DNA from: Candidatus Polarisedimenticolaceae bacterium
Lineage (GTDB): Bacteria > Acidobacteriota > Polarisedimenticolia > Polarisedimenticolales > DASRJG01
Reading direction: 5' to 3'
NCBI GenBank assembly: GCA_035649595.1
Contig: DASRJG010000073.1
Coordinates: forward strand, 1 to 56,614
Length of the DNA: 56,614 nucleotides
The stretch's first letter is position 1; each line of letters opens with the position of its first letter. The notes below the pieces were generated by a model. The model searched no databases. It was not told the DNA's origin and saw nothing but the letters and a program-made list of their open reading frames with translations. Below are positions 1,269 through 35,888 of this stretch, one piece after another. Made by a program: the position numbers and the translations under genes.

Positions 1269-1955
1269 ATGACCGAAACGCGTCGCGTCTATCGCTACTA
1301 CGAGTTCGTGCTGGCGGCCTTCGTGACGGTGCTGCTCTGCGCGAACATCATCGGCCCGGGAAAGGTGGCGCGCGTCGGGCCGCTGACCTTCGGCGCGGGC
1401 GTGCTCTTCTTCCCGATCTCCTACATCTTCGGCGACGTGCTGACCGAGGTGTACGGGTACGCCCGGGCGCGCCGCGTCGTCTGGTCCGGCTTCGCCGCGC
1501 TCGCCTTCGCGTCGTTCATGGCCTCGGTCGTCGTGGCGTTCCCGCCCGCGCCGGGGTGGAACCATCAAGCCGCCTACGAGACCGTGTTCGGCTCGACCTG
1601 GCGGATCGTGCTCGCGTCGCTGACCGCGTTCTGGGCCGGGGAGCTCTGCAACTCGTACGTGCTCGCGAAGATGAAGGTCTGGACCGAGGGTCGAAGCCTG
1701 TACCTGCGCACGATCGGATCGACGATCGTCGGCGAGGGGGTGGATTCGTTGATCTTCTACCCGCTGGCCTTCCTCGGGGTCTGGACCAACGATCAGGTTC
1801 TTCGGGTGATGATCACGAACTACGCGATCAAGGTCGGCTGGGAGACACTCGCGACGCCCGTCACCTACCGGATCGTCGGCTGGCTCAAGCGCGCCGAGCA
1901 CGAGGACTACTACGATCGCAACACCGACTTCAACCCGTTCACGCTGAGGGTCTGA
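1269..1955 (+). CDS. yhhQ: queuosine-precursor transporter, YhhQ/DUF165 (Vut) family
   Basis: 228-aa multi-pass membrane ORF with family-typical stretches (FFPISYIFGDVLTEVYGY, RTIGSTIVGEGVDSLIFYP). GGGAGG lies just upstream of the ATG. Confidence 0.85.
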   Translation: MTETRRVYRYYEFVLAAFVTVLLCANIIGPGKVARVGPLTFGAGVLFFPISYIFGDVLTEVYGYARARRVVWSGFAALAFASFMASVVVAFPPAPGWNHQAAYETVFGSTWRIVLASLTAFWAGELCNSYVLAKMKVWTEGRSLYLRTIGSTIVGEGVDSLIFYPLAFLGVWTNDQVLRVMITNYAIKVGWETLATPVTYRIVGWLKRAEHEDYYDRNTDFNPFTLRV

Positions 1956-2886
1956 TCCCCGCGTGCCCGGCCAGGGCGGCGACGAGCGCGCCGCGGACGT
2001 TCGTCCCGCCCAGGTGATCGAACCCGAGGAACATCGGGGAAGGGTTCAGCTCCAGGATCTTGAGGACGCCGTTCGACGCCTCCTTGAGGTCCATCCCCGT
2101 GAACCGGAGGCCGGTCGCCAAGGCCGCGCGGAGGCAGATGTCCTCGACGGCGGGGGCGAGCGCGATGCTCTCCACCTTCTCCTCGTTCTGGCGGTAGTCG
2201 AGCGCCTGGCTGTGGATGTGGAACGCGGCGACGACCCGGCCGTCGAGCACGAACACGCGCAGGTCGCGCCCCGGGAGCAGCTCCTGGAAGGTGACCGGCG
2301 CATTGGCGAGCCGGGCGAGCTTCGTCTCGTCGAGATCGGCCGCGGAGAGCTCGCGGGTCGCGGCCCCGCCCGCCACCGGCTTGTAGGCGATGCGGCGGCC
2401 CTCGGCGAAGCGGCGGACCGCTTCGGGGTCGTTCGTCCAGAGGGTCTCCGGGACCGGCAAGCCGCGCTGCGCGAGCTCGGCCATCTGGAACGGCTTGCGC
2501 ACCGCGTCGGAGGCCGACAACGCGTTGTAGATCGGGATTCCCATCGCCTCCCAGCGCCGCATCACCCCGACGAGCACCTCTGCCTTCTCGCGCAGGATGA
2601 CGAGCGTGGTGCGCCAGTCCTCGCTCATCTCGCGCGTCATGTCCACGCCGAACGCGAGGGGAGAGAGGTACAGGCTGCGAAGGTAGACGGCGGACGGGTG
2701 GCCGACGTCCTTCCCGTCCAGCAGGATCGCGTCGGGCTCCGCCCCGAGCGCCAGGCGAGGCGACGCCGGGAACGCCAGGCTGTCGAGGATCACCGGGGCG
2801 GCCCCGACTTCGTCGAGCGACTCGCGCAGCGCCGCGACGTGATCGTCGGATACGGATCCGACGAGAACGATCGGCCCCCGGCTCAC
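1939..2886 (-). CDS. ATP-grasp ligase, MdnC/MvdD-like (putative RiPP macrocyclase)
   Basis: This is the C-terminal 315 aa of track ORF 1939..4467. The GTG start at 2886 overlaps the TGA of the upstream gene (GTGA). The N-terminus IVLVGSVSDDHVAALRESLDEVGAAPVILDSLAFP, and ..RVFVLDGRVVAAFHIHSQALDYRQNEE..GMDLKEASNGVLKILELNPSPMF, resemble microviridin-type ATP-grasp enzymes by eye. Confidence 0.8.
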   Translation of the reverse strand: MSRGPIVLVGSVSDDHVAALRESLDEVGAAPVILDSLAFPASPRLALGAEPDAILLDGKDVGHPSAVYLRSLYLSPLAFGVDMTREMSEDWRTTLVILREKAEVLVGVMRRWEAMGIPIYNALSASDAVRKPFQMAELAQRGLPVPETLWTNDPEAVRRFAEGRRIAYKPVAGGAATRELSAADLDETKLARLANAPVTFQELLPGRDLRVFVLDGRVVAAFHIHSQALDYRQNEEKVESIALAPAVEDICLRAALATGLRFTGMDLKEASNGVLKILELNPSPMFLGFDHLGGTNVRGALVAALAGHAGIRPSA

Positions 2887-4637
2887 CGCAGCACCGCGGC
2901 GACGATCGCGGGGTGCTGCCCGATCATCACGTCCAGATCGTCCAGCGTGGATTCCCAGACCCGCCCGTTGAGCAGCAGGGTCGGCGTTCCGGTCCGGAGC
3001 GCATCGGCGAGCGCGGCGGCTCGCTCCACCGCCTCCGCGGCGGCGGGCAGGACGGCCGCAGGATCCACGGACGGCGGCATGAACGCGGCGACCAGCCGGT
3101 CCGCCCCACCCCGCGCGATCTCCAGGTACTTGCGCGGCTCGCCCTTGATCGTGCGGAAGACGTGGATCGTCTGCTCCCCCCCGGCGAGCAGCCCGATCGC
3201 CGAGACCCCGGCGCACATCGCGAGGTCCCCGGGATCCTTGGGATCGCGCGGCGCGAGATGGAAGGCGACCTGCACGGTGTCGGCGCGGCGCGAGGTCATG
3301 CCGACGAGCCCCTCGACGACGGGACCGCAGCCGCTGCAGAACGGGTGCACGAGCGCGTCGATGCGGAACGGAGCGTCGGACCGGCCGAGGCGGAACGCGG
3401 ACGCCGGTGGGCTCGAGAAGGCGCGGGTGCGCCCGGCCGCCTCCGCGAGCGCGCCCCACGGCGTCGCGGCGACCCAGGCGAGCCTGCTCCGGCTCGCGCG
3501 AGATTCGATGCCCAGCTCGAGGAGCGGCACCACCAGCCCCGCGACCGCCAGGAAGGCGGTGACGTGGATGGCGCCGACGAGCACGAGCATCGGCGGCGTG
3601 AGCGCCTCCCAGGCGCGGGCGCCGGTCACCACGATCATCGCGGCGCCCGCGAGCACCCCGGCGTGGACCGTCATGCAGAGCGGGCAGAACCTCTTGAGCG
3701 GCCAGACCTGCAATCCGATGAAGAACAGGGAGGCCGGCGCGGCGAGCAGGTGCGCCGCCGCGATCCAGCCGAAGCCGAAGACCAGCAGCGGTGGAGGCGC
3801 GATGGCGAGGACCCCGGCGAGGATCACGTTGGACGCGGCGAAGGCGAGACCGAGAACGGGGAGATCGAACCCGCCGATGCGCGCCCACTTCGACCCGAGG
3901 ACGCCTTCGCAGTCGCCGAGCCCTCCGCGGCCGCAGATGCGCTGCGCCAGCCGGGGCGTCGCCGAGGCGACCCTCGTGCGGCGGCTGGCGTGGAACAGGA
4001 CGATGCAGGTGGCGGCGACGAGCAGGTCGAGGCCGATCAGAGCCGCGGCGGCCGCGGCGAGCGGCGGCCGCGCGGAGAGCCGCGCCGCCGCCCCGAGACC
4101 CAAGAGGACGATGCCGAGCGTACCGATCGCCCGGGCGGCAAGGAGCGCCGCCGCTTGGCGGTCGACGCGCGCGAGCGTCCACCAGCGGGCCAGGGGTCCG
4201 GGGTCCCTCGGCGGAGCGACCGGTCGCTCGGGGCTCTCGAACGTGACGATCACGCCGGTCCAGGCGGATGCGAACGAGCCGGCGTCCAGCCGCGTGACCT
4301 CGTGGGTGATCGGGTCCTCGAGCTCGTAGGCGTCGCGCGCGGCCCCGACGAGAACACCGAACGACTCCTCGCCGTCGAGAGGGGACCGCAAATGCACGAT
4401 CGCGGGGAGCACCGCGTCGCCGAGGTTCGCAAGCTCGCCTTGGAAGGCGCGCGCGGTGTATCCCCAATCGCGCGCGACGTGGACGAGCGCGAGCAGCGAC
4501 GAGGGATCGTCGTGCAGCGAGAACCGGGCGGCGACGAGCGTCGGCTCGACGCGGTTCCCGAGCCGCCCGAACACCGACGCGAGCACCTCGGCCGGTCCCG
4601 CGCCCCGATACGTCTCGACTCCCATCGTGTCGGTCAT
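2883..4637 (-). CDS. three-domain membrane protein: Cys-less peptidase-C39-like domain, vitamin K epoxide reductase (VKOR) domain and thioredoxin/DsbA-like domain
   Basis: 584-aa ORF. The N-terminal ~140 aa align by eye to the C39 domain of the neighbouring ABC exporter, but GADC is replaced by GAGP and the domain contains no Cys. The VKOR loop pair is C-x7-C (ICGRGGLGDCEG), with SKWA and the CxxC in FCPLCM. The C-terminal thioredoxin-like CxxC is FCSGCGP. Confidence 0.85.
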   Translation of the reverse strand: MTDTMGVETYRGAGPAEVLASVFGRLGNRVEPTLVAARFSLHDDPSSLLALVHVARDWGYTARAFQGELANLGDAVLPAIVHLRSPLDGEESFGVLVGAARDAYELEDPITHEVTRLDAGSFASAWTGVIVTFESPERPVAPPRDPGPLARWWTLARVDRQAAALLAARAIGTLGIVLLGLGAAARLSARPPLAAAAAALIGLDLLVAATCIVLFHASRRTRVASATPRLAQRICGRGGLGDCEGVLGSKWARIGGFDLPVLGLAFAASNVILAGVLAIAPPPLLVFGFGWIAAAHLLAAPASLFFIGLQVWPLKRFCPLCMTVHAGVLAGAAMIVVTGARAWEALTPPMLVLVGAIHVTAFLAVAGLVVPLLELGIESRASRSRLAWVAATPWGALAEAAGRTRAFSSPPASAFRLGRSDAPFRIDALVHPFCSGCGPVVEGLVGMTSRRADTVQVAFHLAPRDPKDPGDLAMCAGVSAIGLLAGGEQTIHVFRTIKGEPRKYLEIARGGADRLVAAFMPPSVDPAAVLPAAAEAVERAAALADALRTGTPTLLLNGRVWESTLDDLDVMIGQHPAIVAAVLR

Positions 4638-4641
4638 CCTG

Positions 4642-4685
4642 GAGAAAAAAGAAACGGCCGGCCCCTGGTCAGAGAAGGCCGGCCG
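4642..4685 (-). terminator. intrinsic terminator after the fourth precursor gene, ending 5 nt before the oxidase start codon
   Basis: Minus strand reads GGCCGGCC-13 nt loop-GGCCGGCC followed by GTTTCTTTTTTC. Confidence 0.65.
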
Positions 4686-4703
4686 TCAGGTGTGCTCCGG
4701 AGA

Positions 4704-4847
4704 TCAGTTGCAGCCGGAACAGCCGTTGGCTTCCTCGCCGCAGGCGAGGGTCGTCGGAAGACAGCACGGACAGGGGAACGGAGGCGGTGGCGGCTTCTTG
4801 CCTCCCCCGTTGACGTGCTTCAGATCCTCGATGAACAACTCACGCAT
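4704..4847 (-). CDS. RiPP precursor peptide A4 (47 aa): MRELFIEDLKHVNGG|GKKPPPPPFPCPCCLPTTLACGEEANGCSGCN
   Basis: Hand-verified translation. GGGAGA RBS upstream of the ATG at 4847. The track ORF 4704..4940 over-extends the N-terminus. Double-glycine leader; core with 6 Cys and TT-x4-EE. Confidence 0.85.
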   Translation of the reverse strand: MRELFIEDLKHVNGGGKKPPPPPFPCPCCLPTTLACGEEANGCSGCN

Positions 4848-4870
4848 CGTCAGTCTCCCAGCCGACGACA

Positions 4871-5005
4871 TCAGCTCGTCGCGCAGCAGCTGTCGCAGGG
4901 GCCTTCCTCGCAGCAAGCGAGGGTGGTGATACCGCAGCACTTACACGGGTGCGGAGGCTTGCCACCCTGCACGTTCTTCAGATCCTCGATGAATAGCTCA
5001 CGCAT
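4871..5005 (-). CDS. RiPP precursor peptide A3 (44 aa): MRELFIEDLKNVQGG|KPPHPCKCCGITTLACCEEGPCDSCCATS
   Basis: Not in the ORF track (too short). Hand translation: ATG 5005, TGA 4871-4873, GGGAGAA RBS upstream. The leader is near-identical to the paralogs. Core has 8 Cys and TT-x4-EE. Confidence 0.85.
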   Translation of the reverse strand: MRELFIEDLKNVQGGKPPHPCKCCGITTLACCEEGPCDSCCATS

Positions 5006-5029
5006 GGTCGGTTCTCCCAGCCGAAGAGA

Positions 5030-5173
5030 TCAGCTCGTGGGCGGGCAGCAGGTGTCGCAGCCGATGGATGATTCCTCGCAGCAGGCCATGGTCGTAGGAT
5101 TGCAGCACCTGCACGGCCTGGGGCCCCATCCGCCTTGGATCTTCTTGAGATCCTCGATGAACAGCTCCTTCAT
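5030..5173 (-). CDS. RiPP precursor peptide A2 (47 aa): MKELFIEDLKKIQGG|WGPRPCRCCNPTTMACCEESSIGCDTCCPPTS
   Basis: Not in the ORF track. Hand translation: ATG 5173, TGA 5030-5032, GGAGG RBS (5182-5186 on the plus strand). Core has 8 Cys and TT-x4-EE. Confidence 0.85.
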   Translation of the reverse strand: MKELFIEDLKKIQGGWGPRPCRCCNPTTMACCEESSIGCDTCCPPTS

Positions 5174-5191
5174 ACCCGAACCCTCCTAGAA

Positions 5192-5223
5192 ATGAAAAAA
5201 GCGCGGTATGAGGTTCCGCGCTT
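5192..5223 (-). terminator. intrinsic terminator immediately after the first precursor gene (A1)
   Basis: Minus strand reads AAGCGCGG-9 nt loop-CCGCGCTT followed by TTTTTTC. The stem starts at the A1 stop codon. Confidence 0.7.
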
Positions 5224-5363
5224 CAGATGCAGCAGTTGCCGGAGCAACCGTTGGCTTCCTCGCAACACGCGAGGGTGGTGGGGCGACAACACTTGCAGCC
5301 GATCACCTCGTTCTGCTTTCCGCCTTGAACCTTCTTGAGATCCTCGATGAACAGCTCTTTCAT
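5223..5363 (-). CDS. RiPP precursor peptide A1 (46 aa): MKELFIEDLKKVQGG|KQNEVIGCKCCRPTTLACCEEANGCSGNCCI
   Basis: This is the C-terminal part of track ORF 5223..5591. The real ATG is at 5363, preceded by GGAGAGGAG. Core has 8 Cys and TT-x4-EE. Confidence 0.85.
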   Translation of the reverse strand: MKELFIEDLKKVQGGKQNEVIGCKCCRPTTLACCEEANGCSGNCCI

Positions 5364-5403: not shown

Positions 5404-5432
5404 ACTCTACGCACGTGTCGCCCCCCGGTCAA
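5404..5432 (-). promoter_or_regulatory. sigma-70-type promoter for the precursor genes (TTGACC-17 nt-TAGAGT)
   Basis: The -35 (5427-5432) overlaps the ABC exporter stop codon; the -10 is at 5404-5409. The same TTGAC-17-TAGAnT architecture occurs upstream of rpmH and rpsU in this window. Confidence 0.6.
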
Positions 5433-7576
5433 GTCCTTTCCTGGGCCCGAACCAGCTCGGCATAAAGACCCTTTCGGGACAGGAGCGCGGCGTGGTCTCC
5501 CGTTTCCGCGATGGCGCCCCTCTCGAGGACGACGATCCGATCGGCGTCGATGACCGTGCTCAGGCGGTGGGCGATTACGATTCGGGTGCAACGAAGTTGT
5601 GCCAAGTTGTTCGCAATCGTTCGTTCCGTGACGTTGTCGAGGTCGCTGGTCGCCTCGTCCAGGAGGAGAATCGCCGGCCTTCGAAGGAGCGCCCGGGCGA
5701 GGGCGAGCCTCTGCCGCTGGCCCCCCGAGAGGGTCGCCCCCCCGTCGGCCAGAAGGGTGTCGTACCCCATCGGCAGGGCCTCGATGTCGTCATGGATCGC
5801 CGCGATCCGCGCGGCGGCGATGACGGCGTCCAGGTCCGTGTCCGGGTCGGCGAGCGCGATGTTCGCTCGGACCGTGGCTCCGAAGATCCGGGCATCCTGC
5901 GTGACCACACCGATCTGCGCTCGGACGGAGCGGAGCTCCAGCCCTTGGAGGTCGAGATCGTCGTACAGGATCCGCCCGGACTCGGGCGCGTAGAGTCCGA
6001 CGAGCAGACGGGCGAGCGTCGACTTGCCGGCGCCGGACCTCCCGACGATCGCCAGCTTCTCCCCCGGCACGACGTGGAGGGTGACGCCGTCGACCGCGGG
6101 GGGGTCGTTGCGGGAGTACCGGTAGGTGACCTGCTCGAGCGCGATCGCCCCCGAGAGCTTCGGCGCCGGCCGGACGGCGCGGGCGTCCTGCTCGCGAGCC
6201 GCCTGGAGCACGTCCTCGATGCGCGCCACGTGGCTTCGCGTCTCCTGGAGCTGGAGCGCGGTCGCGAGGAGGCTCGAGAGCGGCATCAGGAACCCCGCGG
6301 CGAGGGCATTGAGGGTCAGCATCGTCCCGAGCGAGATCTGGTCCCGGAGCACGAGCACGGTGCCGCCGAGGAGGATCGCGAGCGGGGAGCCGATCGACAG
6401 CGCGGCCGTCAGCGCCCCGGCCAGTGAGCCCACCTGCCCGCGCCGGAGGGCGACGTTCATCTCGTCGATGAACAGGTGCGACCACCGCTCGGTGGAGCGG
6501 CGCTCCGCGCCGAGCGCCTTCAGCGACTCGAAGCCCGCGAGCATGTCGACGATGTGCGACTGCGTCCGCGACGAGGCCTCCAGCTCCTGCGCGGCCAGGT
6601 CGCGCATCGGTCCGCGAAACGCCGCGAAGACGGCGATCTGCGCGAGGCCGAGGACGATCACGAGCGCGCCGAGCCGCCAGCTCGCGGCGACGAGGAGCAC
6701 CAGATACGAGATGACCAGCGCCCCGTCGAGCAGCGTCGAGAGCGAGACGGACGTCAGCGCGGTCCGGAGCGCCCGGTTGCTCTCGTAGCGCGAGAGCAGA
6801 TCCCCCGCCGGGCGGCTCGTGAAGAAGGTGTAGGGAAGGTCCGCCAGCCTCTCCATGAAGCCGAACGTCAGATCGACGTCGAGAACCGTGCGGAGGTGGA
6901 TCAGGAGCACGCCGCGCAGGAGCGTGGCGACGAGCTGGAACACGACCAGCCCCGCCGCGCCGACGGCGAGCAATCCGACGAGCCCCGCGTCCCGCCAGGG
7001 GATCACCCGGTCGACCACCGCTCCCAGGATCAGGGGGAACGCCAGCGCCAGCGCCTGCAGGATGATCGAGAGGGCGATGACCCGGGCGACGATGCCGCGG
7101 TGCCGGAGCACGCGCCCGAGATACGCCGCGACGTACCGGCGACGGATCCGGCGCGCCTGGAACCCTTCTCCGGGCTCGAGGATCAGCGCGACCCCCGTGA
7201 ACCGCTCCCGGAAGCTCTGCATCGGCACCATCCGCGGCCCGGCGGCGGGATCGACCACGCGCACGCCCGATCCGGCCAGCCGGTCGAAGACCACGAAGTG
7301 CTCGAACCCCCAGTGGAGGATCGCGCCACGCGGGAGGAACTTCAGGTCGCCGACGTCGAGCTGAACCCCTCGGCCGCGGACCCCGAAGCGCTGGGCGCCC
7401 ACGACGATGTCGTACGCGCTCGCCCCCCCGCGTCCCGCGCCCACCGCCTCCCGCGCCTCGTCGAGCGTGATGTCGCGCCCGAGGTACCCCAAGACCATCG
7501 TCAGGCAGGCGGCCGCGCAGTCGGCGCCCTCCATCTGCGGGACGAACGGGATCGCGCGCCGCGGCCTAGTCGCCAC
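5429..7576 (-). CDS. bacteriocin/RiPP ABC exporter with N-terminal peptidase C39 domain (double-glycine leader cleavage and export)
   Basis: 715-aa ORF with a GTG start. The C39 catalytic region is QMEGADCAAACL with later HWGFEHF and VVDP. Six-TM ABC membrane domain. Walker A GRSGAGKST, signature LSGGQRQR, Walker B ILLLDEATS. Confidence 0.93.
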   Translation of the reverse strand: MATRPRRAIPFVPQMEGADCAAACLTMVLGYLGRDITLDEAREAVGAGRGGASAYDIVVGAQRFGVRGRGVQLDVGDLKFLPRGAILHWGFEHFVVFDRLAGSGVRVVDPAAGPRMVPMQSFRERFTGVALILEPGEGFQARRIRRRYVAAYLGRVLRHRGIVARVIALSIILQALALAFPLILGAVVDRVIPWRDAGLVGLLAVGAAGLVVFQLVATLLRGVLLIHLRTVLDVDLTFGFMERLADLPYTFFTSRPAGDLLSRYESNRALRTALTSVSLSTLLDGALVISYLVLLVAASWRLGALVIVLGLAQIAVFAAFRGPMRDLAAQELEASSRTQSHIVDMLAGFESLKALGAERRSTERWSHLFIDEMNVALRRGQVGSLAGALTAALSIGSPLAILLGGTVLVLRDQISLGTMLTLNALAAGFLMPLSSLLATALQLQETRSHVARIEDVLQAAREQDARAVRPAPKLSGAIALEQVTYRYSRNDPPAVDGVTLHVVPGEKLAIVGRSGAGKSTLARLLVGLYAPESGRILYDDLDLQGLELRSVRAQIGVVTQDARIFGATVRANIALADPDTDLDAVIAAARIAAIHDDIEALPMGYDTLLADGGATLSGGQRQRLALARALLRRPAILLLDEATSDLDNVTERTIANNLAQLRCTRIVIAHRLSTVIDADRIVVLERGAIAETGDHAALLSRKGLYAELVRAQERT

Positions 7577-8111
7577 GCGCGCTCCGGAGCGAGGGGAACA
7601 GGAGGCCGAGCAGGCTCTCCTTCCCGACCGGCGCCCGAGCCGTGAGCACCTCCCCGGCCGTCGCCCCTGCGCCGCGATCCCCGAGAAGGATCGCGTCGGC
7701 GATCAGGACGCGGGATGGAGCGGCGCCCCCCGGCCAGGTCGCGCCGCGAATCCGATCGATCACGAGAGTGAGCGGGGCGGGCTCGAGCCGCACCGCCCTC
7801 ACCTCCGCACGGAGCGTCCGCCGCGCATCCGAGGGATCGCCGAGCTGGACGACGAGCCCCGACGCGATGCCGCGACGGTCGCGATCGGAGAAATAGAGCG
7901 TGACCGATTCGGGCGTTTCGACCGCGGCGAGCCCTTGCGCGTACACCGCCACGGACCCGAGCGCCGCGTACGCCGCGCCGGCGACGAAGACGGCCACGAG
8001 GAACGCGAACGTCCATCGCGTCCAGGACGGCGGGACACGCAGGACGTCGCCGGAGGATCGTGCTCCGGCGTGGTGGCGGAGCGCCTCTTCGCGAAAGAGT
8101 CCTTCGGTCAT
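7566..8111 (-). CDS. short HlyD-like secretion accessory protein (181 aa; lacks the long coiled-coil region)
   Basis: The real start MTEGLFREEALRHH (ATG 8111) is typical of HlyD-family N-termini and is followed by one TM helix. It overlaps the upstream stop (ATGA) and overlaps the ABC gene start by 11 nt. The upstream part of track ORF 7566..8795 was rejected. Confidence 0.55.
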   Translation of the reverse strand: MTEGLFREEALRHHAGARSSGDVLRVPPSWTRWTFAFLVAVFVAGAAYAALGSVAVYAQGLAAVETPESVTLYFSDRDRRGIASGLVVQLGDPSDARRTLRAEVRAVRLEPAPLTLVIDRIRGATWPGGAAPSRVLIADAILLGDRGAGATAGEVLTARAPVGKESLLGLLFPSLRSARGD

Positions 8112-8869
8112 CGACGGATCAGCCTCCAGCCGTCGGCGTAGAGATAGTCGAGATCGTCCCGGCGCTCCAGCCGTCCCGACACCTCGACGGGGCGACCGAC
8201 CAGATCCGCGATCCGAGACCCCAGCGGGCTTCCATCGGCCGCGACCAGGATGAGATGCGCCTCGCGCCCCCGCTCGTCTCGCGCGAACAGCATCGGCGGG
8301 ATCCCGCCCGCGAGGCATCGCAGCGCGCAGGCGCGGTGCACGGCGAGACGTCCCGGGTTCATCACGCCGAGAAAGCACTTCGAGTCGACGATCTCCCCCG
8401 TGAGCACCCGGCGCCCTTCGTCCACGATGCGCGTCGCGGGAGGGGGCGGTCCGCCGGTCGGGAGCGCGGGCTCGTAGGGCTCGATGTCGGCCAGCTCGAT
8501 CATCGTGGTCGAGCCCCGGACGATGCGCCGTCCCCGCACCGTCACCGGCCTCCCGTCGAATGCGGCCACGACGCCTCCCGCGCCGTGCTTCCCCTCGGCG
8601 ACGAGCGGATAACGGACGACCGCGGCGAACGGCGAGCCGTCGCTCGACTCCCTGGCGAGGAGCACCGGGACCGGCTCGGTCTCGATGGTCCCGCGCCAGG
8701 CCCGAGTCTCTCCGTACTCGAAGACCGCACGGTCGAAGGGGCCGGTCGCCGCCGCGAAGAGGGCGGCTCCGGCGACCGATGCCCCGAGCAGCCACCAGGC
8801 GATGCGTCGCGTCCGCGCCGCGCAGCTCGCGGGAGCGGGAAGGTAGCCGACGAAGAAGTCGTCAGACAC
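8108..8869 (-). CDS. hypothetical membrane-anchored protein with a C-x12-H-x2-C-x3-C motif
   Basis: 253-aa ORF with an N-terminal TM helix (IAWWLLGASVAGAALFAAA) and the motif DSKCFLGVMNPGRLAVHRACALRC. It is translationally coupled on both sides. No family recognised. Confidence 0.6.
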   Translation of the reverse strand: MSDDFFVGYLPAPASCAARTRRIAWWLLGASVAGAALFAAATGPFDRAVFEYGETRAWRGTIETEPVPVLLARESSDGSPFAAVVRYPLVAEGKHGAGGVVAAFDGRPVTVRGRRIVRGSTTMIELADIEPYEPALPTGGPPPPATRIVDEGRRVLTGEIVDSKCFLGVMNPGRLAVHRACALRCLAGGIPPMLFARDERGREAHLILVAADGSPLGSRIADLVGRPVEVSGRLERRDDLDYLYADGWRLIRR

Positions 8870-9863
8870 GGGCCGGCTCGACGGCGGTTCCCGGCTCGTG
8901 CGCCTCGGGGTTCACCCAGACCCGGCCCGCGACGACGCGCACGTCGAAGGTCGCGATCTTCTCCGTGAAGGGCGCGGGGGAGCGGCCGGTCTGCGGGAGG
9001 TACTGGTAGCCGTGCCAGGGGCACGTGATACAGCCGTCGATGATCCGCCCCTCGCCCAGGGGGCCTGCCTGATGCCGGCAGACGTTCGAGACCGCGGAGA
9101 TCCAGCCGTCGTAGCGAAAGACGGCGATGCGCTCCTTGTCGCAGACGATGCGGGCGCGATCCTCGGGGATCTCGGCCGCCGGCCCCGCGTCGATCCAGCC
9201 GTCCGGCCCCCGAGGCGTCGCCCGGTCCCCAGGGCGCTCGCGCGACGCGGCGAGGAGGTGGATCGACAGGAGCCAGATCATCCCCACTCCCGTCGCGATC
9301 GCGAGCGCGGGGTGGATCTCGGAGCGGAGCGCGCCGAACGCGACGTGGAGCGAAAGGAGCGCATACGCGAGATACACCGCCATGTGGAGGGACTTCCAGA
9401 CGCGAGCGCTCAGGTTGGCCAGCCAGAAGTCGTGGCTCGTCGCCGCCATTAGGAAGAGGATCACGAGCGCGCCGAGACCGAAGGTCTGGAACCCGAATCC
9501 CGTGGTCAGGAGGCTGACCAGCGGCGGCACGTTCCCCAGCGCGTGGAACTGGACGATCGCGAAGATCGCGTGCGCCAGCGCCAGGCAGAACATCGCGACG
9601 CCGAGGTGCCGCCGGTTGTAGAGGAGCGGGAGCAGCGCCGGCCGCAGCCGGCACAACGGCCCGATGGAGAGGATGACGTGGAGGAGGAGGAACGCCGCGA
9701 GAGCGAGGCCGCGGATCAGGAGGGTCTCGATCGTCGAGTCCGGATGGACCGCGGCGCCGATCGCGACGAACGCCCCGAGGAACAGCGCGACGCCCGCCGC
9801 GAGCACCGTGTCGTAGCGTCGCTTGAAGCGGTTCCAGCCGACGGCGGCGTAGGAGACGCTCAT
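8862..9863 (-). CDS. ferric-reductase-like (di-heme b, MsrQ/YedZ-type) transmembrane domain fused to a Rieske [2Fe-2S] domain
   Basis: 333-aa ORF. The N-terminal ~200 aa form a multi-TM region with conserved His residues. The C-terminus carries the Rieske motifs CRHQAGPL ... CPWHGYQY. Confidence 0.8.
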   Translation of the reverse strand: MSVSYAAVGWNRFKRRYDTVLAAGVALFLGAFVAIGAAVHPDSTIETLLIRGLALAAFLLLHVILSIGPLCRLRPALLPLLYNRRHLGVAMFCLALAHAIFAIVQFHALGNVPPLVSLLTTGFGFQTFGLGALVILFLMAATSHDFWLANLSARVWKSLHMAVYLAYALLSLHVAFGALRSEIHPALAIATGVGMIWLLSIHLLAASRERPGDRATPRGPDGWIDAGPAAEIPEDRARIVCDKERIAVFRYDGWISAVSNVCRHQAGPLGEGRIIDGCITCPWHGYQYLPQTGRSPAPFTEKIATFDVRVVAGRVWVNPEAHEPGTAVEPARV

Positions 9864-9979
9864 CGCAGGACGACGCCGGCGACGAACGCGATCGGAAGGA
9901 GGATCGCGAGCCCGATCAGGATCAGCCTGTGGGCGCGGCGGAGCGCCCGGGTCAACGCCCTCTCCCGACCGCCGCCCAT
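9860..9979 (-). CDS. possible 39-aa single-TM peptide (MGGGRERALTRALRRAHRLILIGLAILLPIAFVAGVVLR)
   Basis: Its stop overlaps the start of the ferric-reductase/Rieske gene (ATGA), which has no RBS of its own. There is no clear RBS for this ORF, and its start overlaps the 72-aa ORF end by 28 nt. Confidence 0.3.
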   Translation of the reverse strand: MGGGRERALTRALRRAHRLILIGLAILLPIAFVAGVVLR

Positions 9980-10170
9980 CGGCGCGCGATGAACGGCCAG
10001 AGCGCGATCACGCCCGGGAGGACCAGCACGCGGAACGTCCACGGCGTGCCGCGCGCCGCGGCGTCGATGCGTCCGATCCCCGTGATCACGAACGGCACGC
10101 CGATCAGCGTTCCGACGCCGAGGTAGACCCCGAGTGTCCACAGGGCGACACGGGCGGCGTCCGCATGCAT
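9952..10170 (-). CDS. small two-TM membrane protein (72 aa), function unknown
   Basis: ORF with two clear hydrophobic helices. It starts 10 nt after the stop of the upstream gene. No obvious RBS. Confidence 0.45.
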   Translation of the reverse strand: MHADAARVALWTLGVYLGVGTLIGVPFVITGIGRIDAAARGTPWTFRVLVLPGVIALWPFIARRWAAVGRGR

Positions 10171-10180: not shown

Positions 10181-11941
10181 TTACGGGAAGTACCAGTACA
10201 GCACCAGACTCACCGACCAGCCGCCGCGCTGGACGAGCACGTCGTAGTCGATGGTGTAGGTTCCGCCGGCCGGGAGCTGGGCGGTCAGGTCGAGGTCCTG
10301 ATCGCAGGGTGCATTTCCCGTGCACGCCACGTAGCCGGGACACCAGCCCGCGCGGGAGAACGTGCAGGACGGCCAGCCGCACGCGTTCCAGCCCATGCAC
10401 GCCGTGATGCCCCCCGGGGTGCAGTCGGTCCGGAACGGGACGCCCGTCCAGATCGGCGTGCCGTTCTTCAGGATCCGGTTCGTCCTGTGGCAGAACTCGT
10501 CGCAGTTCTGGCAGGTCCCCCCCGGGCAGTTCGAGGTGGTGGTGCAGGCGTTCCCGTTGTTCGACCCGCCGTCGCAGTAGAGCGTCCCGCCATGGCCGGT
10601 GGTGAAGAGCCGCATCACGACCTTGTTGGCCCCGAGCGGGATCGAGACCGACCGCGTCGCGAGGGGCGCGCCGCCGAACCCGACGACCTGGATCCCCGCG
10701 GCGGGGTGCTTCGCGGACGCTTCCTCGGGGCGCTTGCTGAAGGTGAACTCGCTCGTGACGTGCCAGCCCGCCGAAGCGAAGTTCGCGATCTCGGCCCCGA
10801 CGTACTTGTGCCCGGTGAGCAGCGGGGCGTACGGCGTGACGTCGAGCGAGAGCACGCGGGGGGGGACGACGCCGGTGCCGTTGGGCGCCGGGGCGTCCGT
10901 GCCGAACGGGGTGATCGCGCGCATGAGCTCGAGGTTGTCGTTGGTGACGCAGCTCCCCGTTCCCGCGATACAGCCGTCGAGCACGAGGAAGAGCTGCGCG
11001 ATCCGGTCCCACGGATCGCCGCACGGGTTCCACCCGCCGGGCGTGGGGTTCGTGCTCCCGCACTTGTCCGTGCACCCCATCTGCCCCGGCTTGCACAGCC
11101 TCGAGTCCAGCGTGTAGGTCACCGTGATCTTGGTCCAGTTCCCGGCCGGGAAATCGACGGGGACCATCAGCTGGAACCCGTCGCTGCGCTGAACGGTGCC
11201 GGGCCGCGGCGGACAGCTCTGGCCGCCGCCGAGCCAGCAGAGGGCGTCGTCGTCGTGGGCGCGCACCCGGACACGGCCGGCGACCGCCTCGATGTGCTCG
11301 TTCGAGAACGCGGACTCGTTCCCGGCCGCATCGACGGCCACGACCGCGAAGTAGTAGTTCGTCCACAGCGCGAGGCCGGTCATCGACGTGGCGAGCGACA
11401 GCCCGACGTCCTTCACGTTGTCGTAGACGTGCGATTTCGTGCCGTAGTAGACGAGGTACTTCGTCACCTCTCCCGCCGGCGCCGCCGCGGTCCAGGTGAG
11501 CTCGATCGTCGTGTCGGTGTAGCTGCCGGAGATCACCGGGAGCGTCGTGACGGTGGAGCCCCTCGATTCGGATTCGTTGCCGGCGGCGTCGACCGCAGTC
11601 ACGAGGTAGTAGGCATCGATGCCGGAGCCGAGGGCTCCGGCGTCCAGGAAGCTCGGGGTGGGCGACGTTCCGATGCGATTGCTCCCGCCCGCCTTGTCGG
11701 GGACGAAGCTCGGCACCGATCCCCGATAGACCCGATAGGAGGCGACGCTCTCCACTCCGTCGTTGACGTCGCGATCGACGAGCGACCAGGACAGCGCCGC
11801 GTCGCCCCCCGACTTGCCGACCAGGACGTTGGCCGGGGCCTTCGGCTTGGTGACGTCCGCGCCGAGCGTGGCCGGAGCCAACGCCAGAAGGGCGGGAAGC
11901 ACGAGGATCGCGGGACGCAAGGGCCGGCTCATGATCGCCAT
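10181..11941 (-). CDS. secreted protein: signal peptide, two fibronectin-III-like domains and a Cys-rich PNGase-F-like C-terminal domain
   Basis: Start chosen at MAIMSRPLRPAILVLPALLALAPATLGA (ATG 11941). FN3-like signatures are YRVYRG.., YYLVTAVDAAGNES and YYFAVVAVDAAGNES. The C-terminal ..HGGTLYCDGG..CDEFCHRTN..NG..RAGWCPGYV.. resembles the peptide-N-glycosidase F C-terminal family by eye. Confidence 0.7.
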   Translation of the reverse strand: MAIMSRPLRPAILVLPALLALAPATLGADVTKPKAPANVLVGKSGGDAALSWSLVDRDVNDGVESVASYRVYRGSVPSFVPDKAGGSNRIGTSPTPSFLDAGALGSGIDAYYLVTAVDAAGNESESRGSTVTTLPVISGSYTDTTIELTWTAAAPAGEVTKYLVYYGTKSHVYDNVKDVGLSLATSMTGLALWTNYYFAVVAVDAAGNESAFSNEHIEAVAGRVRVRAHDDDALCWLGGGQSCPPRPGTVQRSDGFQLMVPVDFPAGNWTKITVTYTLDSRLCKPGQMGCTDKCGSTNPTPGGWNPCGDPWDRIAQLFLVLDGCIAGTGSCVTNDNLELMRAITPFGTDAPAPNGTGVVPPRVLSLDVTPYAPLLTGHKYVGAEIANFASAGWHVTSEFTFSKRPEEASAKHPAAGIQVVGFGGAPLATRSVSIPLGANKVVMRLFTTGHGGTLYCDGGSNNGNACTTTSNCPGGTCQNCDEFCHRTNRILKNGTPIWTGVPFRTDCTPGGITACMGWNACGWPSCTFSRAGWCPGYVACTGNAPCDQDLDLTAQLPAGGTYTIDYDVLVQRGGWSVSLVLYWYFP

Positions 11942-11987
11942 TACGTACACCCGGTGCGCGCGACGATCAACGGGAAAAGCCGCGGCG

Positions 11988-13313
11988 TCACTTGAACAGG
12001 TGGTCGTAGCGCCCGGGCTTCCCCTGCTCCCATGGGCGATAGACATTGCAGAAGTCGATCCGCTCGCCGAGCAGCGGGTGGTCGGCCCGCCAGAGCTTGT
12101 ACAGGAGCCCCCGTCGCGGGACGCCGAGGTTCTCCTGCTGGAGCTTCACGAACGCGGTGGCGGCCGCGTGGTTGTCCCGCGTGATCTCCAGGCCGAAACG
12201 GTCGGCCTCGTGCTCCTGCCACCGCGAATACGCCCCGGCGACCGGTGTGACGACGAACGACAGCACGCCGACCAGGATGATGATGAGCGGAAGGGAGGCG
12301 ACGTCCGAGAGCTCCGTGAATCCGAACCGCGACCCGAACCGCGCGATGAGCCCTCCTTGCAGGCGATAGGCGGCATAGAGCGTGACCAGGATCAACCCGG
12401 CGAAGAAGAAGATCGATTTCACCACGTGACCGAGCACGTAGTGGCCCATCTCGTGCCCCATGACGAAGAGCAGCTCCTCCGGCGCGAGCTTGGCGATCGT
12501 CGTGTCCCAGAGGACGATCCGCTTGGTGCCGCCGAATCCGGTGACGTAGGCGTTGACCGTGTTCGTGTCCACGCTCTTCTCGACCTCGAACACGCGCGCG
12601 CCGTCGATTCCGGCGCGCCCCGCGAGGGTCAGGATCTGCTGCTCCAGCGCCTTGTTCTTCATCGGACCGAACTTGTTGAACAGCGGCGCGATCGCCACCG
12701 GGGCGACGAGCAGGAAGAACGCCGCGAGCGGGATCGCGAGCGCGCTGGTCCACAGCCACCAGCGGCGCGGGCTCTTCCGGAGGAGCAGATAGGGGATCCA
12801 CAGGAAGAGCGCGCCGATCACGATCCCCACCATGAGTCCCTTGAGCTCGTCGCCGGCCCACTTGCCGAAGGTCTGATTCGAGAGGCCGTACGCGTGAGGC
12901 CGGACGAACCCGGCGAAATAGGACAGCGGCAGATCGGCCAGGAAGTCGATGAGGGCGAACAGCGCGACGTACACGACGATCGTGAAGAGCCACACGCGTC
13001 CGATCTTCCGGGCGCGATCGCGGAGCTTCGCGGAGAGACCCGTGAAGAGGATGAGCGCCGGCACGAGCAGGCTCCAGACCTGATCGGTCGCCCAGAGCCA
13101 GTTTCCCCCGCGGGCGAAGCGAAGCGCCTTTTCGGTGGGCTCGGGAACGGGGACGGGCCCCCGCTCCGGCTCGGGCGCCGGAGAGGAATCCGCCGCCTGG
13201 TTGGCGATGCCGTGCGGGGACTCCTCGGGAGGAGGATTCGGGGGCGCGGCGAGCCCCGGCACCCCGAGCGCGAGAGCGAGGACCGCGAGGAGCACGGCAA
13301 CACGCGCGCTCAC
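11988..13313 (-). CDS. M48-family zinc metalloprotease (Ste24/HtpX-like), membrane-bound
   Basis: The GTG start at 13313 overlaps the stop of the BON gene (GTGA). HEMGH motif (VMGHEMGHYVLGH) and multiple TM helices. The upstream part of track ORF 11988..13631 was rejected. Confidence 0.85.
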   Translation of the reverse strand: MSARVAVLLAVLALALGVPGLAAPPNPPPEESPHGIANQAADSSPAPEPERGPVPVPEPTEKALRFARGGNWLWATDQVWSLLVPALILFTGLSAKLRDRARKIGRVWLFTIVVYVALFALIDFLADLPLSYFAGFVRPHAYGLSNQTFGKWAGDELKGLMVGIVIGALFLWIPYLLLRKSPRRWWLWTSALAIPLAAFFLLVAPVAIAPLFNKFGPMKNKALEQQILTLAGRAGIDGARVFEVEKSVDTNTVNAYVTGFGGTKRIVLWDTTIAKLAPEELLFVMGHEMGHYVLGHVVKSIFFFAGLILVTLYAAYRLQGGLIARFGSRFGFTELSDVASLPLIIILVGVLSFVVTPVAGAYSRWQEHEADRFGLEITRDNHAAATAFVKLQQENLGVPRRGLLYKLWRADHPLLGERIDFCNVYRPWEQGKPGRYDHLFK

Positions 13314-35505: not shown

Positions 35506-35540
35506 GACCCCCTGCCGCCCAGCGCCTAGTCGTTCACAGG

Positions 35541-35560
35541 TTTTCCACACCTGTGGAAAA
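35541..35560. promoter_or_regulatory. inverted pair of DnaA boxes TTTTCCACA-cc-TGTGGAAAA upstream of dnaA
   Basis: A perfect 20-bp palindrome seen about 36 bp upstream of the dnaA start. It fits autoregulation or part of oriC. Confidence 0.6.
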
Positions 35561-35859
35561 AGAGAAACCGCTTCAAGGCACCCCTGGATCCGAAGGTTCG
35601 AGAGGCGAGCTGGGAGAAGGGACCGGAGTCTCGTACGGGCGGTGGGAAGAGGAGTCGCGCGTGATCATGGATGAGTGCACGATGAGACGGAAACGTAGGA
35701 GTGCCGACACGGCGGCACACGGTGGCGACTCCGAACCGCGAGCTGTGTGATGGTCTACCTCGACTCTCGACGACCGACCCGCGGCGAGGCTACCACAGCG
35801 CGTCGGCGGGTTTCAATCACGACGAAGAGGGACGCGCGATGCGCCGGCGGGCCGGTCGC

Positions 35860-35888
35860 TTGACACTCGCGCGCGCGTTCCCTAGACT
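35860..35888 (+). promoter_or_regulatory. candidate sigma-70 promoter of rpmH (TTGACA-17 nt-TAGACT)
   Basis: Motif match about 37 nt upstream of the rpmH ATG. Confidence 0.55.

Follow-up and report, generated by a model that had tools for sequence, protein, structure and literature searches.

Organization of the gene array

The window (the whole stretch of 56,614 nucleotides that was analysed) carries on its minus strand an operon-like array, in which genes for a small membrane protein and a PCAT are followed by four tandem precursor genes (A1 to A4), a C39-like/VKOR/DsbA-like fusion oxidase and an ATP-grasp macrocyclase, the latter two genes and ~1.8 kb downstream of the precursors (Table 1). 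The four precursor genes proposed in an earlier note are real, as all four ORFs were found on the minus strand within 4704-5363, each with its own Shine-Dalgarno-like sequence (GGAG, AGGAGG or GGGAG) 6-10 nt 5' of it. The remark that two of them were missing from the ORF track fits our observations that the public gene calls of three near-identical contigs omit A3, which is also missing from protein database matches, and that the ORF listing of the window joins A4 to an upstream GTG. An identical A1 peptide is encoded on 3 further metagenome contigs. The whole window was scanned against Rfam and for tRNAs, and nothing was found.

Table 1. Coordinates and properties of the features of the array in the window.
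Feature	Positions	Strand	Properties and evidence
ATP-grasp macrocyclase, PsnB ortholog, 315 aa	1939-2886	minus	PDB 7DRM, E=3e-87 over 302 residues; 47.5% identity
Fusion oxidase, 580 aa	2883-4625	minus	Pfam, alignments, AF2 model, Foldseek, PDB profile matches; alternative ATG at 4637
Fusion oxidase, parts			C39-like domain, predicted dead, residues 1-135; extra TM helix 156-181; then five-TM VKOR core
Fusion oxidase, redox sites			VKOR loop Cys231/Cys239 and CxxC 314/317; DsbA-like domain CxxC 430/433 and cis-Pro GTP 546-548
Terminator/attenuator-like hairpin	4645-4687	minus	Between A4 and oxidase gene; strong, GC-rich, then UUUCUUUUUU; -31.1 kcal/mol, z = -4.25, 0/200 shuffles fold as well
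Precursor A4, 47 aa	4704-4847	minus	MRELFIEDLKHVNGGGKKPPPPPFPCPCCLPTTLACGEEANGCSGCN; core TTLACGEE, 6 Cys, PPPPP tract
Precursor A3, 44 aa	4871-5005	minus	MRELFIEDLKNVQGGKPPHPCKCCGITTLACCEEGPCDSCCATS; core TTLACCEE, 8 Cys
Precursor A2, 47 aa	5030-5173	minus	MKELFIEDLKKIQGGWGPRPCRCCNPTTMACCEESSIGCDTCCPPTS; core TTMACCEE, 8 Cys
Terminator/attenuator-like hairpin	5195-5222	minus	Directly after A1 stop; GCGCGG/CCGCGC then U6; clear anatomy, energy z-score -0.64, not significant
Precursor A1, 46 aa	5223-5363	minus	MKELFIEDLKKVQGGKQNEVIGCKCCRPTTLACCEEANGCSGNCCI; 15-aa leader MKELFIEDLKKVQGG; 31-aa core with TTLACCEE, 8 Cys
Sigma-70-like promoter candidate	5404-5432	minus	Just 5' of A1; TTGACC-17-TAGAGT; 1 site vs 0.2 expected; consensus match only
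PCAT	5429-7576	minus	Pfam C39, ABC_membrane and ABC_tran; TIGR03796 E=3e-171, 571 bits, below 853-bit cutoff
Membrane protein, 181 aa	7566-8111	minus	N-terminal LFREEA motif and one TM; overlaps PCAT start

The C39 domain of the PCAT aligned with LahT150 (6MPZ, E=7e-25) over the segments QMEGADC, EHFVV and VDP, with matching Gln, Cys, His and Asp, so that the catalytic triad is intact and the domain is predicted to be competent. The 181-aa membrane protein preceding it had no match in Pfam, NCBIfam or PDB. It is kept upstream of the PCAT in divergent loci, presumably resembles the N-termini of HlyD and CvaA, and is likely an export accessory protein. A '409-aa' ORF at 7566-8795 was found to be an artefact in which two genuine genes, for products of 181 and 253 aa, are joined.

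Precursor peptides and their relatives

Translation of the four genes upheld the peptide anatomy given in the earlier note. The leaders follow the pattern M[RK]ELFIEDL...GG, with ELFIEDL invariant, V/I, L, L and M at the hydrophobic positions -4, -7, -12 and -15, and GG at -2/-1, and the core signature, the Cys counts of 8, 8, 8 and 6 and the PPPPP tract of A4 all hold. Each peptide contains a single core, and TTxxxxEE is present in all four. No NCBIfam model matched the A1-A4 peptides.

A profile of the four peptides retrieved 98 relatives from a set of 5.8 billion proteins, and an exhaustive search with the peptide profile yielded 231 representative clusters; the signature of A1-A4 is thus far beyond chance. 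The motif TTxxxxEE was exact in 94 of the 98 relatives, TT and EE being the most conserved core residues in the family. The earlier proposal depended on the TT, EE and Cys positions recurring in other genomes, and they are conserved in about 100 homologs. The top match of the exhaustive search, P0122 (1503 aa), was discarded as spurious: it is a eukaryotic, copia-like fragment built of tandem repeats, in which the scores of the 'TTYFCYEE' units add up.

The number of core Cys was even in 107 of 107 relatives, distributed over five modular patterns, and ring Cys6 was accompanied by an additional C-terminal Cys in all 107; one relative has lost ring Cys6 and gained a new Cys after EE. Among 143 newly returned cluster representatives, 93 are single-core peptides with ring Cys and contain 2, 4, 6 or 8 Cys, and a single representative has an odd core count (P0231, 5 core Cys). 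Multi-core relatives are without ring Cys. The cysteines of the family appear to be gained and lost in matched pairs, and their co-variation suggests that the last C-terminal Cys would pair with ring Cys6 and the one before it with ring Cys5, that the first Cys following EE would be joined to the one at -3/-4, and that there would be an extra N-terminal pair.

The A2/A3 (24 nt) and A3/A4 (23 nt) spacers are near-duplicates, as the earlier note had observed, sharing 19 identical positions, and their likeness extends into common 3' ends (...ACGAGCTGA). The recent tandem duplication that had been read from them was not borne out. Synonymous divergence among the paralogs was pS = 0.44-0.57, on which ground a recent origin was rejected, and A1 is closer to its orthologs elsewhere (85-89% identity) than to the paralogs beside it in the window (58-60%); other contigs likewise carry peptides of the A2, A3 and A4 types. 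The duplication is ancient. Comparison of the four genes gave pN/pS of 0.55-0.95 for the core vs 0.12-0.51 for the leader, which places the leader under purifying selection and indicates relaxed constraint on the core rather than demonstrated positive selection. Support for describing A1-A4 as a diversifying family is therefore weak, variable as the flanks are.

The macrocyclase and the graspetide assignment

TTxxxxEE is the published two-lactone core of Group 2 graspetides, and LFIEDL is the published leader motif by which the macrocyclase PsnB recognizes its precursor and which is required for binding. Regarding the leader as a classical double-glycine export signal was thus correct for the pattern but incomplete for its function, since LFIEDL is the recognition element of a macrocyclase. 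The ATP-grasp protein of the window keeps the residues that bind the core Glu in PsnB (R72, R101, R213), thereby containing both the general Arg72/Arg213 and the Group 2a-specific Arg101 of the PsnB clade. Of the leader pocket, Y171, R181, L196, V201 and F203 are kept, and R192K and I193L are conservative changes. The GTG start of its gene overlaps the stop codon of the oxidase gene (GTGA), and the two genes are probably translationally coupled. A point against is that Cys at ring positions 5 and 6 would be a novelty among the substrates of PsnB-type enzymes.

Judged from these motifs, A1-A4 are very probably single-core Group 2 (plesiocin-type) graspetide precursors. Tandem cores within one precursor, which they lack, are typical of plesiocin but do not strictly define the group. 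The fixed scaffold of TT, EE and even Cys with variable flanks, which the earlier note had proposed for these paralogs, is supported by this Group 2 core and by the nearby PsnB ortholog, PCAT and VKOR/DsbA-type oxidase. The mass shifts it had predicted, -36 Da and -6 to -8 Da, are by calculation exactly those expected for two esters and 3-4 disulfides. The linear cores have calculated monoisotopic masses of 3249.330 (A1), 3407.276 (A2), 2956.148 (A3) and 3187.373 (A4); after losing 36.02 Da through the esters and 8.06 Da (A1-A3) or 6.05 Da (A4) through the disulfides, the products would weigh 3205.246, 3363.192, 2912.065 and 3145.305, respectively. Overall, we assign a probability of roughly 0.7 to the reading of the products as lactone-plus-disulfide graspetides, the bonds of which we infer.

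The fusion oxidase

The gene between the precursors and the ATP-grasp gene codes for a membrane protein that we assigned to the VKOR family by Pfam (PF07884) and by a profile match to PDB 4NV2. In an alignment of 16-18 homologs the VKOR residues C231, C239, S245, C314 and C317 were invariant, and so were C430, C433 and G546-T547-P548 of the DsbA-like domain among homologs. The AF2 model of the fusion (pLDDT 82.8) contains 6 TM helices, and Foldseek matched its C-terminal domain to BdbD, ScsC and DsbA (TM 0.55-0.68), a DsbA-family fold. When the VKOR-DsbA part alone was compared with PDB by phmmer, chance TM matches were returned only, and a profile search found the Synechococcus VKOR.

The N-terminal domain matched ComA (TM 0.76), LahT150 with leader (0.73) and HlyB (3ZUA, 0.71) in Foldseek. 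Direct BLASTP of the PCAT C39 domain against it gave no match, the likeness being found by profile and PDB searches. Cys17 of ComA aligned to Ala and His96 to Ser, and none of the homologs of the fusion carries Cys or His at the C39 catalytic positions; the domain is C39-like and, by its sequence, predicted to be catalytically dead and not a peptidase. Most likely it would bind the leader, and a membrane oxidase with its own leader-binding domain would represent a so far undescribed architecture.

The cassette order, PCAT, 1-6 precursors, fusion and ATP-grasp, recurs in over 30 loci, with Sorangium, Acidobacteriota MAGs and a remote subfamily of 4-Cys peptides among them. Across 20 metagenome loci, all contigs that reach far enough have the ATP-grasp gene downstream (17/17), and precursors were upstream in 17/17. 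For the one Cys-free plesiocin-like precursor examined, an ATP-grasp gene was present and VKOR absent. The family member P0080 has none of the cassette enzymes nearby. The disulfides of the A1-A4 products are, in our judgement, probably made by the fusion oxidase.

Alternative explanations

Three other readings of the cassette were rejected on its gene content, the PsnB motifs and the paired Cys changes. The Cys could serve as metal ligands of a metallothionein- or Zn-tetracysteine-like peptide, the VKOR/DsbA protein having another client, and indeed the CxCC and CC clusters look like metal-binding motifs and a Zn-tetracysteine RiPP family exists (cysimiditides); yet the oxidase gene lies between precursors and macrocyclase in every locus with enough sequence and is missing next to the Cys-free precursor, and the Cys number, always even, changes in pairs, while 2-Cys members would be unable to form a metal site, which makes this reading highly improbable. 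Even less probable, in our estimation, are unmodified, disulfide-bonded peptides of the class II bacteriocin type with an ATP-grasp enzyme acting on something else: bacteriocins that contain disulfides typically come with a double-glycine leader, a PCAT and an oxidoreductase of their own, but here leader and core bear both published PsnB recognition elements, TT and EE are more conserved than any other core residues, and the ATP-grasp protein retains the substrate-contacting residues and is apparently coupled in translation to the oxidase. We give hardly any credence to lanthipeptides, in which the dehydrated TT would be attacked by Cys to form methyllanthionines. The core is rich in Thr and Cys, two dehydrations would also fit -36 Da, and the Sorangium homolog P0076 bears the UniRef name 'Class I lanthipeptide', but no LanB, LanC, LanM, LanKC or LanL domain was found among the window neighbours or in the Pfam listings of conserved neighbours elsewhere, and the invariant EE, the LFIEDL leader and the PsnB ortholog would be left unexplained.

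The side of the membrane on which the graspetide disulfides would form is a separate matter. In the same graspetide pathway the VKOR/DsbA protein might face outward and make the disulfides in the periplasm after the PCAT removes the leader, the C39-like domain either lying in the periplasm or persisting as a remnant that no longer reads leaders and merely links oxidase and transporter. The characterised bacterial, plant and mammalian VKORs are so far all outward-facing, the C-terminal domain of the fusion resembles the periplasmic or extracytoplasmic DsbA, BdbD and ScsC, and sublancin with its thiol-disulfide oxidoreductase BdbB offers a precedent. Against this, six TM helices place the C39-like and DsbA-like domains on one side of the membrane, a sidedness derived from helix counting. 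With an outward orientation, an N-terminal domain of some 150 residues, rich in Arg and with no signal peptide, would further have to be translocated, and a leader-binding fold in the periplasm would never meet the leader. In the profile of the fusion, the first 178 positions match ComA residues 20-185, thus running from the cytoplasmic C39 domain of real PCATs into the start of their membrane region, where the part between the extra helix and PCAT TM1 is a low-complexity TM match. The K/R counts of the short loops are opposite to those of the Synechococcus VKOR of known topology, loop 2/3 having about 0.1 vs 3, loop 4/5 about 0.2 vs 2, and the part after TM5 about 3 vs 1. Part of the charge argument is weak, since VKORs that face outward also have a large loop 1/2 that is rich in Arg and positive in charge. 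We consider the outward orientation unlikely. Helix count, charge bias and PCAT homology give inward-facing, leader-guided oxidation by the fusion slightly better than even odds, while the complete scheme, in which an inward-facing VKOR-DsbA with a leader-reading, dead C39 domain makes cytoplasmic disulfides before cleavage and ATP-grasp, oxidase and PCAT read one 15-residue leader in turn, is offered tentatively.

Proposed pathway and activity

In the lactone-plus-disulfide pathway that we favour, LFIEDL in the leader would dock the precursor on the PsnB-like ATP-grasp enzyme, which would phosphorylate both Glu of TTxxxxEE and close two nested Thr-Glu lactones, giving a hairpin with a loss of 36 Da. 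The fusion would then oxidise the 6 or 8 Cys to 3 or 4 disulfides, with the DsbA-like CxxC presumably handing electrons on to the loop Cys pair of VKOR, then to its CxxC and then to membrane quinone, while the dead C39-like domain most likely holds the double-glycine leader. Should the C39-like and redox domains be cytoplasmic, as proposed here, oxidation would be guided by the leader and precede export. The PCAT would finally cleave after GG and export a compact product of 29-32 residues.

Against elastase and chymotrypsin, plesiocin has Ki values in the nM range, and replacing its Leu by Arg redirects it to trypsin. The analogy to plesiocin and the conserved Leu/Met after TT suggest that the products might be tight-binding inhibitors of serine proteases of the chymotrypsin, elastase or subtilisin type, a possibility to which we give somewhat less than an even chance.

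Relation to known systems and significance

The closest parallel to the window peptides is plesiocin (PsnA2/PsnB, Plesiocystis pacifica), with an LFIEDL-type leader ending in GG, a TTxxxxEE core that forms two nested Thr-Glu lactones, and Leu after TT; the A4 ring TTLACGEE differs from a plesiocin-like TTLA[IVL]GEE in position 5 only. The plesiocin precursor, however, has four cores, whereas the window peptides have one core and 6-8 Cys, one or two of these within the lactone ring, and their locus, known here from genes alone, contains several different precursors and a C39-like/VKOR/DsbA oxidase gene before the macrocyclase. The sublancin 168 operon (sunA-sunT-bdbA-sunS-bdbB) likewise combines a RiPP precursor and a PCAT with dedicated thiol-disulfide oxidoreductases for disulfides. 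BdbB is of the DsbB type and BdbA is thioredoxin-like, and both act outside the cytoplasm. In sublancin they are separate proteins without a leader-binding domain and the primary modification is S-glycosylation, not ester cross-links, whereas the window protein fuses VKOR and DsbA-like parts to a dead C39 domain with an extra TM helix.

The Synechococcus VKOR (3KP9/4NV2) shares with the fusion the loop Cys pair, the CxxC of TM4 and a fifth TM helix leading to a Trx-fold CxxC domain; the fusion differs by its additional N-terminal C39-like domain and sixth TM helix, its DsbA-like C-terminus and its reversed short-loop charge bias. Catalysed disulfide formation in the bacterial cytoplasm is unusual. 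The sole precedent for the orientation proposed for the fusion is ApVKORi of Aeropyrum pernix, a natural cytoplasm-facing VKOR. This archaeal enzyme makes disulfides for the cytoplasm of a hyperthermophile in general, lacks a leader-binding domain and is not part of a RiPP cluster; beyond a few Crenarchaea, no inward-facing VKORs have so far been reported. HlyB (3ZUA), too, retains a C39 fold that is catalytically dead and serves to bind the substrate, but there the domain is part of the transporter, in contrast to the window domain, which is fused to an oxidase and has the double-glycine leader as its presumed ligand. The HlyB domain binds the RTX substrate.

Graspetides are known as cross-linked by esters and amides only. 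In the searchable literature we found no paper combining ATP-grasp, VKOR and RiPP, and neither VKOR nor natural graspetide disulfides are mentioned in the large neighbourhood surveys of Makarova 2022 and Carter 2026 or in the PsnB mechanism paper; a mention in Ramesh et al. 2021 or Lee et al. 2020 is possible. Genome-mining tools may have missed such precursors, as some are uncalled and the intervening oxidase gene places them about 1.8 kb or more from the macrocyclase.

Our data point to a subfamily of considerable size and wide distribution, found in Acidobacteriota from soil and in Sorangium, in which the plesiocin hairpin would sit within a framework predicted to hold 1-4 disulfides, the work of a dedicated oxidase with an unusual architecture. 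If this holds true, a second type of covalent cross-link would be added to the graspetide class, and the peptides would provide engineering with a scaffold that is compact, hyper-stable and variable in one defined loop (likely the protease-inhibitor P1 at Leu/Met), as well as a natural test case for leader-guided, possibly cytoplasmic, bacterial disulfide formation. If, furthermore, the fusion does face inward and reads the leader with its C39-like domain, it would be without precedent both as a RiPP tailoring enzyme that forms disulfides under guidance of a leader and as an inward-facing VKOR outside Crenarchaea. Its products would then make up a large family of 'knotted' miniproteins with lactones and disulfides, so far uncharacterised, in Acidobacteriota and Myxococcota.

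Precursor genes and their likeness to plesiocin

The four small precursor ORFs proposed in the earlier note, A1 to A4, lie on the minus strand where it had placed them. Their alignment bore out the common leader, M-[KR]-ELFIEDLK-x-[VI]-x-GG, which is invariant in all four, and the core signature C-x-C-C-x-[PI]-TT-[LM]-A-C-[CG]-EE-...-C-...-C-[CN], with the claimed Cys counts of 8, 8, 8 and 6. A Shine-Dalgarno-like element precedes each gene, in line with the claim that each has its own RBS, and the reported likeness of the A2/A3 and A3/A4 spacers corresponds to ~79% identity. The proposed recent tandem duplication did not survive the comparison of the paralogs at DNA level: at pairwise pS values of 0.44-0.57, the A1-A4 paralogs are not recent. 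Among them, purifying selection acts on the leader (pN/pS 0.12-0.51), and constraint on the core is looser (pN/pS 0.55-0.95). Orthologs of A1 on other contigs show 85-89% identity, and peptides of the A2, A3 and A4 types are found there as well. A3 was left out by the gene callers on three near-identical public contigs, yet its sequence is present there.

Genes of the precursor cassette in the window
Feature	Positions	Strand	Remark
181-aa membrane protein	7566-8111	minus	
PCAT (peptidase-containing transporter)	5429-7576	minus	
A1, 46 aa	5363-5223	minus	
A2, 47 aa	5173-5030	minus	
A3, 44 aa	5005-4871	minus	
A4, 47 aa	4847-4704	minus	
580-aa fusion protein	2883-4625	minus	
315-aa ATP-grasp	1939-2886	minus	GTG start overlaps fusion stop codon

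The minus-strand array was defined by GC3 analysis, Pfam and public gene calls on near-identical contigs. Its ATP-grasp matches PsnB, the plesiocin macrocyclase (PDB 7DRM), at E=3e-87 and 47.5% identity, and retains the Glu-binding residues R72, R101 and R213, of which R101 is Group 2a-specific, as well as the leader pocket residues Y171, R181, L196, V201 and F203, with the conservative replacements R192K and I193L. The PsnB paper describes the Group 2 core as TTxxxxEE, in which two Thr-Glu lactones form via Glu phosphorylation, and reports that enzyme binding needs the leader sequence LFIEDL. The signature common to the four cores is thus plesiocin's two-lactone motif, and the leader, near-identical in all four, is the recognition sequence of the enzyme; at the sequence level, A1-A4 qualify as Group 2 graspetides on every count. 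The C39 domain of the PCAT matches LahT150 (E=7e-25), with Gln, Cys, His and Asp all in place.

A sigma-70-like promoter candidate was detected directly upstream of A1, and a GC stem followed by U6 immediately 3' of that gene. A much stronger hairpin with a U-run (-31.1 kcal/mol, z = -4.25) lies between A4 and the fusion gene. Hairpins of such kind are the usual means of raising the dose of precursor transcript above that of the enzymes, and these two may act in this way.

Neighbouring genes

In the 181-aa protein, a conserved LFREEA...G.V...P.W motif at the N-terminus is followed by a single TM helix and a tail of ~110 aa; Pfam, NCBIfam and PDB gave no match. The N-terminus is reminiscent of bacteriocin export accessory proteins of the HlyD/CvaA type, but the protein is much too short for a full membrane fusion protein. 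With its conserved LFREEA-TM N-terminus, it is probably an export accessory; homologs of it stand ahead of the PCAT in divergent loci (L002, L003, L016, L020, L031, L036 and L041). The "409-aa" ORF at 7566-8795 (minus) was rejected as a high-GC artefact joining the real 181-aa gene to an out-of-frame part of a 253-aa gene; in this 70% GC window many long ORFs are likewise spurious, e.g., the 842-aa ORF at 1939-4467 and the 758-aa plus-strand ORF at 2913-5189.

Directly upstream (8108-10170, minus), in overlapping or closely spaced frames, are a 72-aa ORF, a 333-aa Ferric_reduct-TM and Rieske [2Fe-2S] fusion, and the 253-aa protein, which is membrane-anchored and Cys-containing with a weak DUF5818 match. 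These genes accompany the cassette solely in near-identical contigs and are therefore probably unrelated to it, though they could conceivably be redox-linked to the quinone-dependent oxidase. At 10181-12046 (minus) lies a 621-aa protein that combines fn3 with the N- and C-terminal domains of peptide-N-glycosidase F; it is unusual for a soil bacterium and unrelated to the precursor cassette. The regions 17723-42202 and 52005-55676 encode rpoD, dnaG, gyrA, gyrB and dnaA (34129-35664) on the minus strand and yidC, mnmG and mfd on the plus strand; the contig is chromosomal and close to the replication origin, the dnaA-yidC intergenic stretch (~35665-36668) being a candidate oriC region.

Cysteine patterns in the precursor family

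A profile built on A1-A4 retrieved 98 proteins, 94 of which carry exact TTxxxxEE and the others ST or TS, so that TT and EE are conserved in homologs, as anticipated. Of 107 peptides, 82 have Leu at ring position 3, 20 have Met, three have Gln, and Phe and Arg occur once each; 105 have Ala at position 4. The even Cys count extends to the cores of all 107 relatives. The Cys classes (N-flank / ring / C-flank) are 3/CC/3 (47), 3/Cx/2 (23), 1/Cx/2 (14), 1/CC/3 (12) and 0/CC/2 (9). Cys at ring position 6 is found exactly when the C-flank carries one extra Cys, and one peptide lacking it has a new Cys immediately after EE instead. Such paired co-losses suggest, from co-variation, that ring Cys5 would pair with the penultimate C-terminal Cys, ring Cys6 with the final one, and the Cys at -3/-4 with the first one following EE, besides an additional N-terminal pair. 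In locus L018 of an Acidobacteria MAG, the first precursor (494-628) has TTMACNEE without Cys6 and has gained a Cys after EE (CECNPCCW), apparently a compensatory change that keeps 8 Cys; a second precursor (2661-2801) lies between its fusion and ATP-grasp genes.

When 1.84 billion representatives were searched exhaustively with HMMER, 231 clusters came up at E<=1e-3. Of the 143 representatives new to this search, 93 have a single core, a ring Cys and a Cys count of 2, 4, 6 or 8, and TTxACGEE-x(2-4)-C is their minimal form; 43 are multi-core, plesiocin-like and without ring Cys; and one has a truly odd core Cys count. The best match, P0122, is a false positive, a 1503-aa tandem-repeat protein of a copia-like eukaryotic retroelement that tops the search because its short TTYFCYEE unit is repeated ~12 times. 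Proteins of ~250 aa (P0147, P0160, P0172, P0177, P0178, P0200, P0244 and P0261) carry 7-10 TTxAxGEE repeats behind a twin-arginine-like signal (RRDFLRR) and lack the LFIEDL leader. Plesiocin-like cores thus sit on a Tat-exported protein here, and one may ask how or where their cross-links would be made.

The fusion oxidase and its orientation

Pfam recognizes Peptidase_C39 and VKOR in the 580-aa fusion. In alignments of 16-18 homologs, the VKOR loop pair C231 and C239 with S245, the VKOR active site C314-x-x-C317, and the Trx-fold C430-x-x-C433 with the cis-Pro motif G546-T547-P548 are invariant. Relative to the ComA peptidase domain, catalytic Cys17 is replaced by Ala and His96 by Ser, and none of the aligned fusion homologs has Cys or His at these positions; the N-terminal domain is thus C39-like but dead. 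In the AF2 model (pLDDT 82.8), this domain (1-135) is followed by an extra helix (156-181), five VKOR-type TM helices and a C-terminal domain (389-579). Foldseek matched the N-terminal domain to ComA (0.76), LahT150 with bound leader (0.73) and the HlyB C39-like domain (0.71), and the C-terminal one to DsbA-family BdbD, ScsC and DsbA (0.55-0.68).

Because there are six TM helices, the model places both terminal domains on the same membrane side. From helix counting, homology and charge statistics, we lean towards the cytoplasm, an inward orientation that is documented for VKOR only in the crenarchaeal paralog ApVKORi. No signal peptide precedes the Arg-rich domain of ~150 residues, and positions 14-178 of the family profile align with full-length PCATs (ComA 20-185, also PCAT1 and HlyB), an alignment that in our reading takes in C39 domain, linker and TM helix 1 of the transporter (inside to outside). 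The charge bias of the short loops also favours this side, being opposite to that of Synechococcus VKOR, the reference with solved topology: K/R counts are 0.1 versus 3 in loop 2/3, 0.2 versus 2 in loop 4/5, and 2.9 versus 1 after TM5. The Arg-rich loop 1/2 is uninformative, since outward-facing VKORs share it.

Conservation of the cassette

The same gene order, with the PCAT followed by one to six precursors, the fusion and the ATP-grasp, recurs in Sorangium cellulosum So ce26, in seven Acidobacteriota MAGs, in unrelated metagenome contigs, in a distant 4-Cys subfamily and in 20 further metagenome loci. Among these 20, ATP-grasp is present in 17/17 contigs extending past the fusion, and Cys-rich precursors in 17/17 with upstream sequence, one showing frameshifts that resemble assembly errors. 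Among genomes, the nearest relative is an Acidobacteriota MAG, whose fusion is 65% and whose ATP-grasp is 80% identical, which makes an acidobacterial origin of the window probable. Near the single Cys-free plesiocin-like precursor that was examined, an ATP-grasp but no VKOR was found.

The orphan member P0080 (L008 6788-6916, L009 5533-5661; ...PPATTMACCEESSSGCC..., 4 Cys) adjoins large HYR/TIG and BNR-repeat proteins and an AraC regulator, with no ATP-grasp, VKOR or PCAT within reach in either locus; either it is matured by enzymes encoded elsewhere, or it is a relic. Sorangium SOCE26_057470 (L001 10001-10165), named "Class I lanthipeptide" in UniRef, neighbours a C39-like/VKOR fusion, a PsnB-like ATP-grasp and a PCAT; since no lanthipeptide enzymes were found in that neighbourhood, the name looks like a mis-annotation.

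Comparison with known systems and proposed pathway

Unlike plesiocin, the window's precursors have a single core each, with Cys inside and around the ring, and the locus holds several precursors and a dedicated oxidase gene. Functionally, the oxidase has its nearest analogue in the sublancin operon, where BdbB and BdbA are separate proteins encoded beside a PCAT. Makarova 2022 proposed a possible role of conserved Cys as thioether donors and mentions none of VKOR, vitamin K, disulfide or thioredoxin. Carter 2026 predicted 21,584 graspetides and noted NHLM-type PCATs with Group 2; its text and the supplements examined contain no VKOR or disulfide term. The combination of ATP-grasp, VKOR and RiPP was not found in the literature searched, whose incomplete coverage may hide an earlier mention, and no natural disulfide graspetide is apparent from titles and abstracts of literature with both "graspetide" and "disulfide bond".

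With the genes and proteins identified, we infer the following chemistry. The leader LFIEDL would dock the precursor on the ATP-grasp, where two nested Thr-Glu lactones would form. The oxidase would bind the amphipathic double-glycine helix of the same leader through its dead C39 domain, and its DsbA-like domain would oxidise the Cys pairs and pass electrons via VKOR to quinone; the PCAT would cleave after GG and export the product. Expression, cross-links and activity of the A1-A4 products are predictions. Plesiocin inhibits elastase (Ki 16 nM) and chymotrypsin (Ki 7.5 nM), and replacement of a core Leu by Arg shifts the target to trypsin. As a conserved Leu/Met likewise follows TT here, this analogy tentatively suggests that A1-A4-type products may be serine-protease inhibitors.
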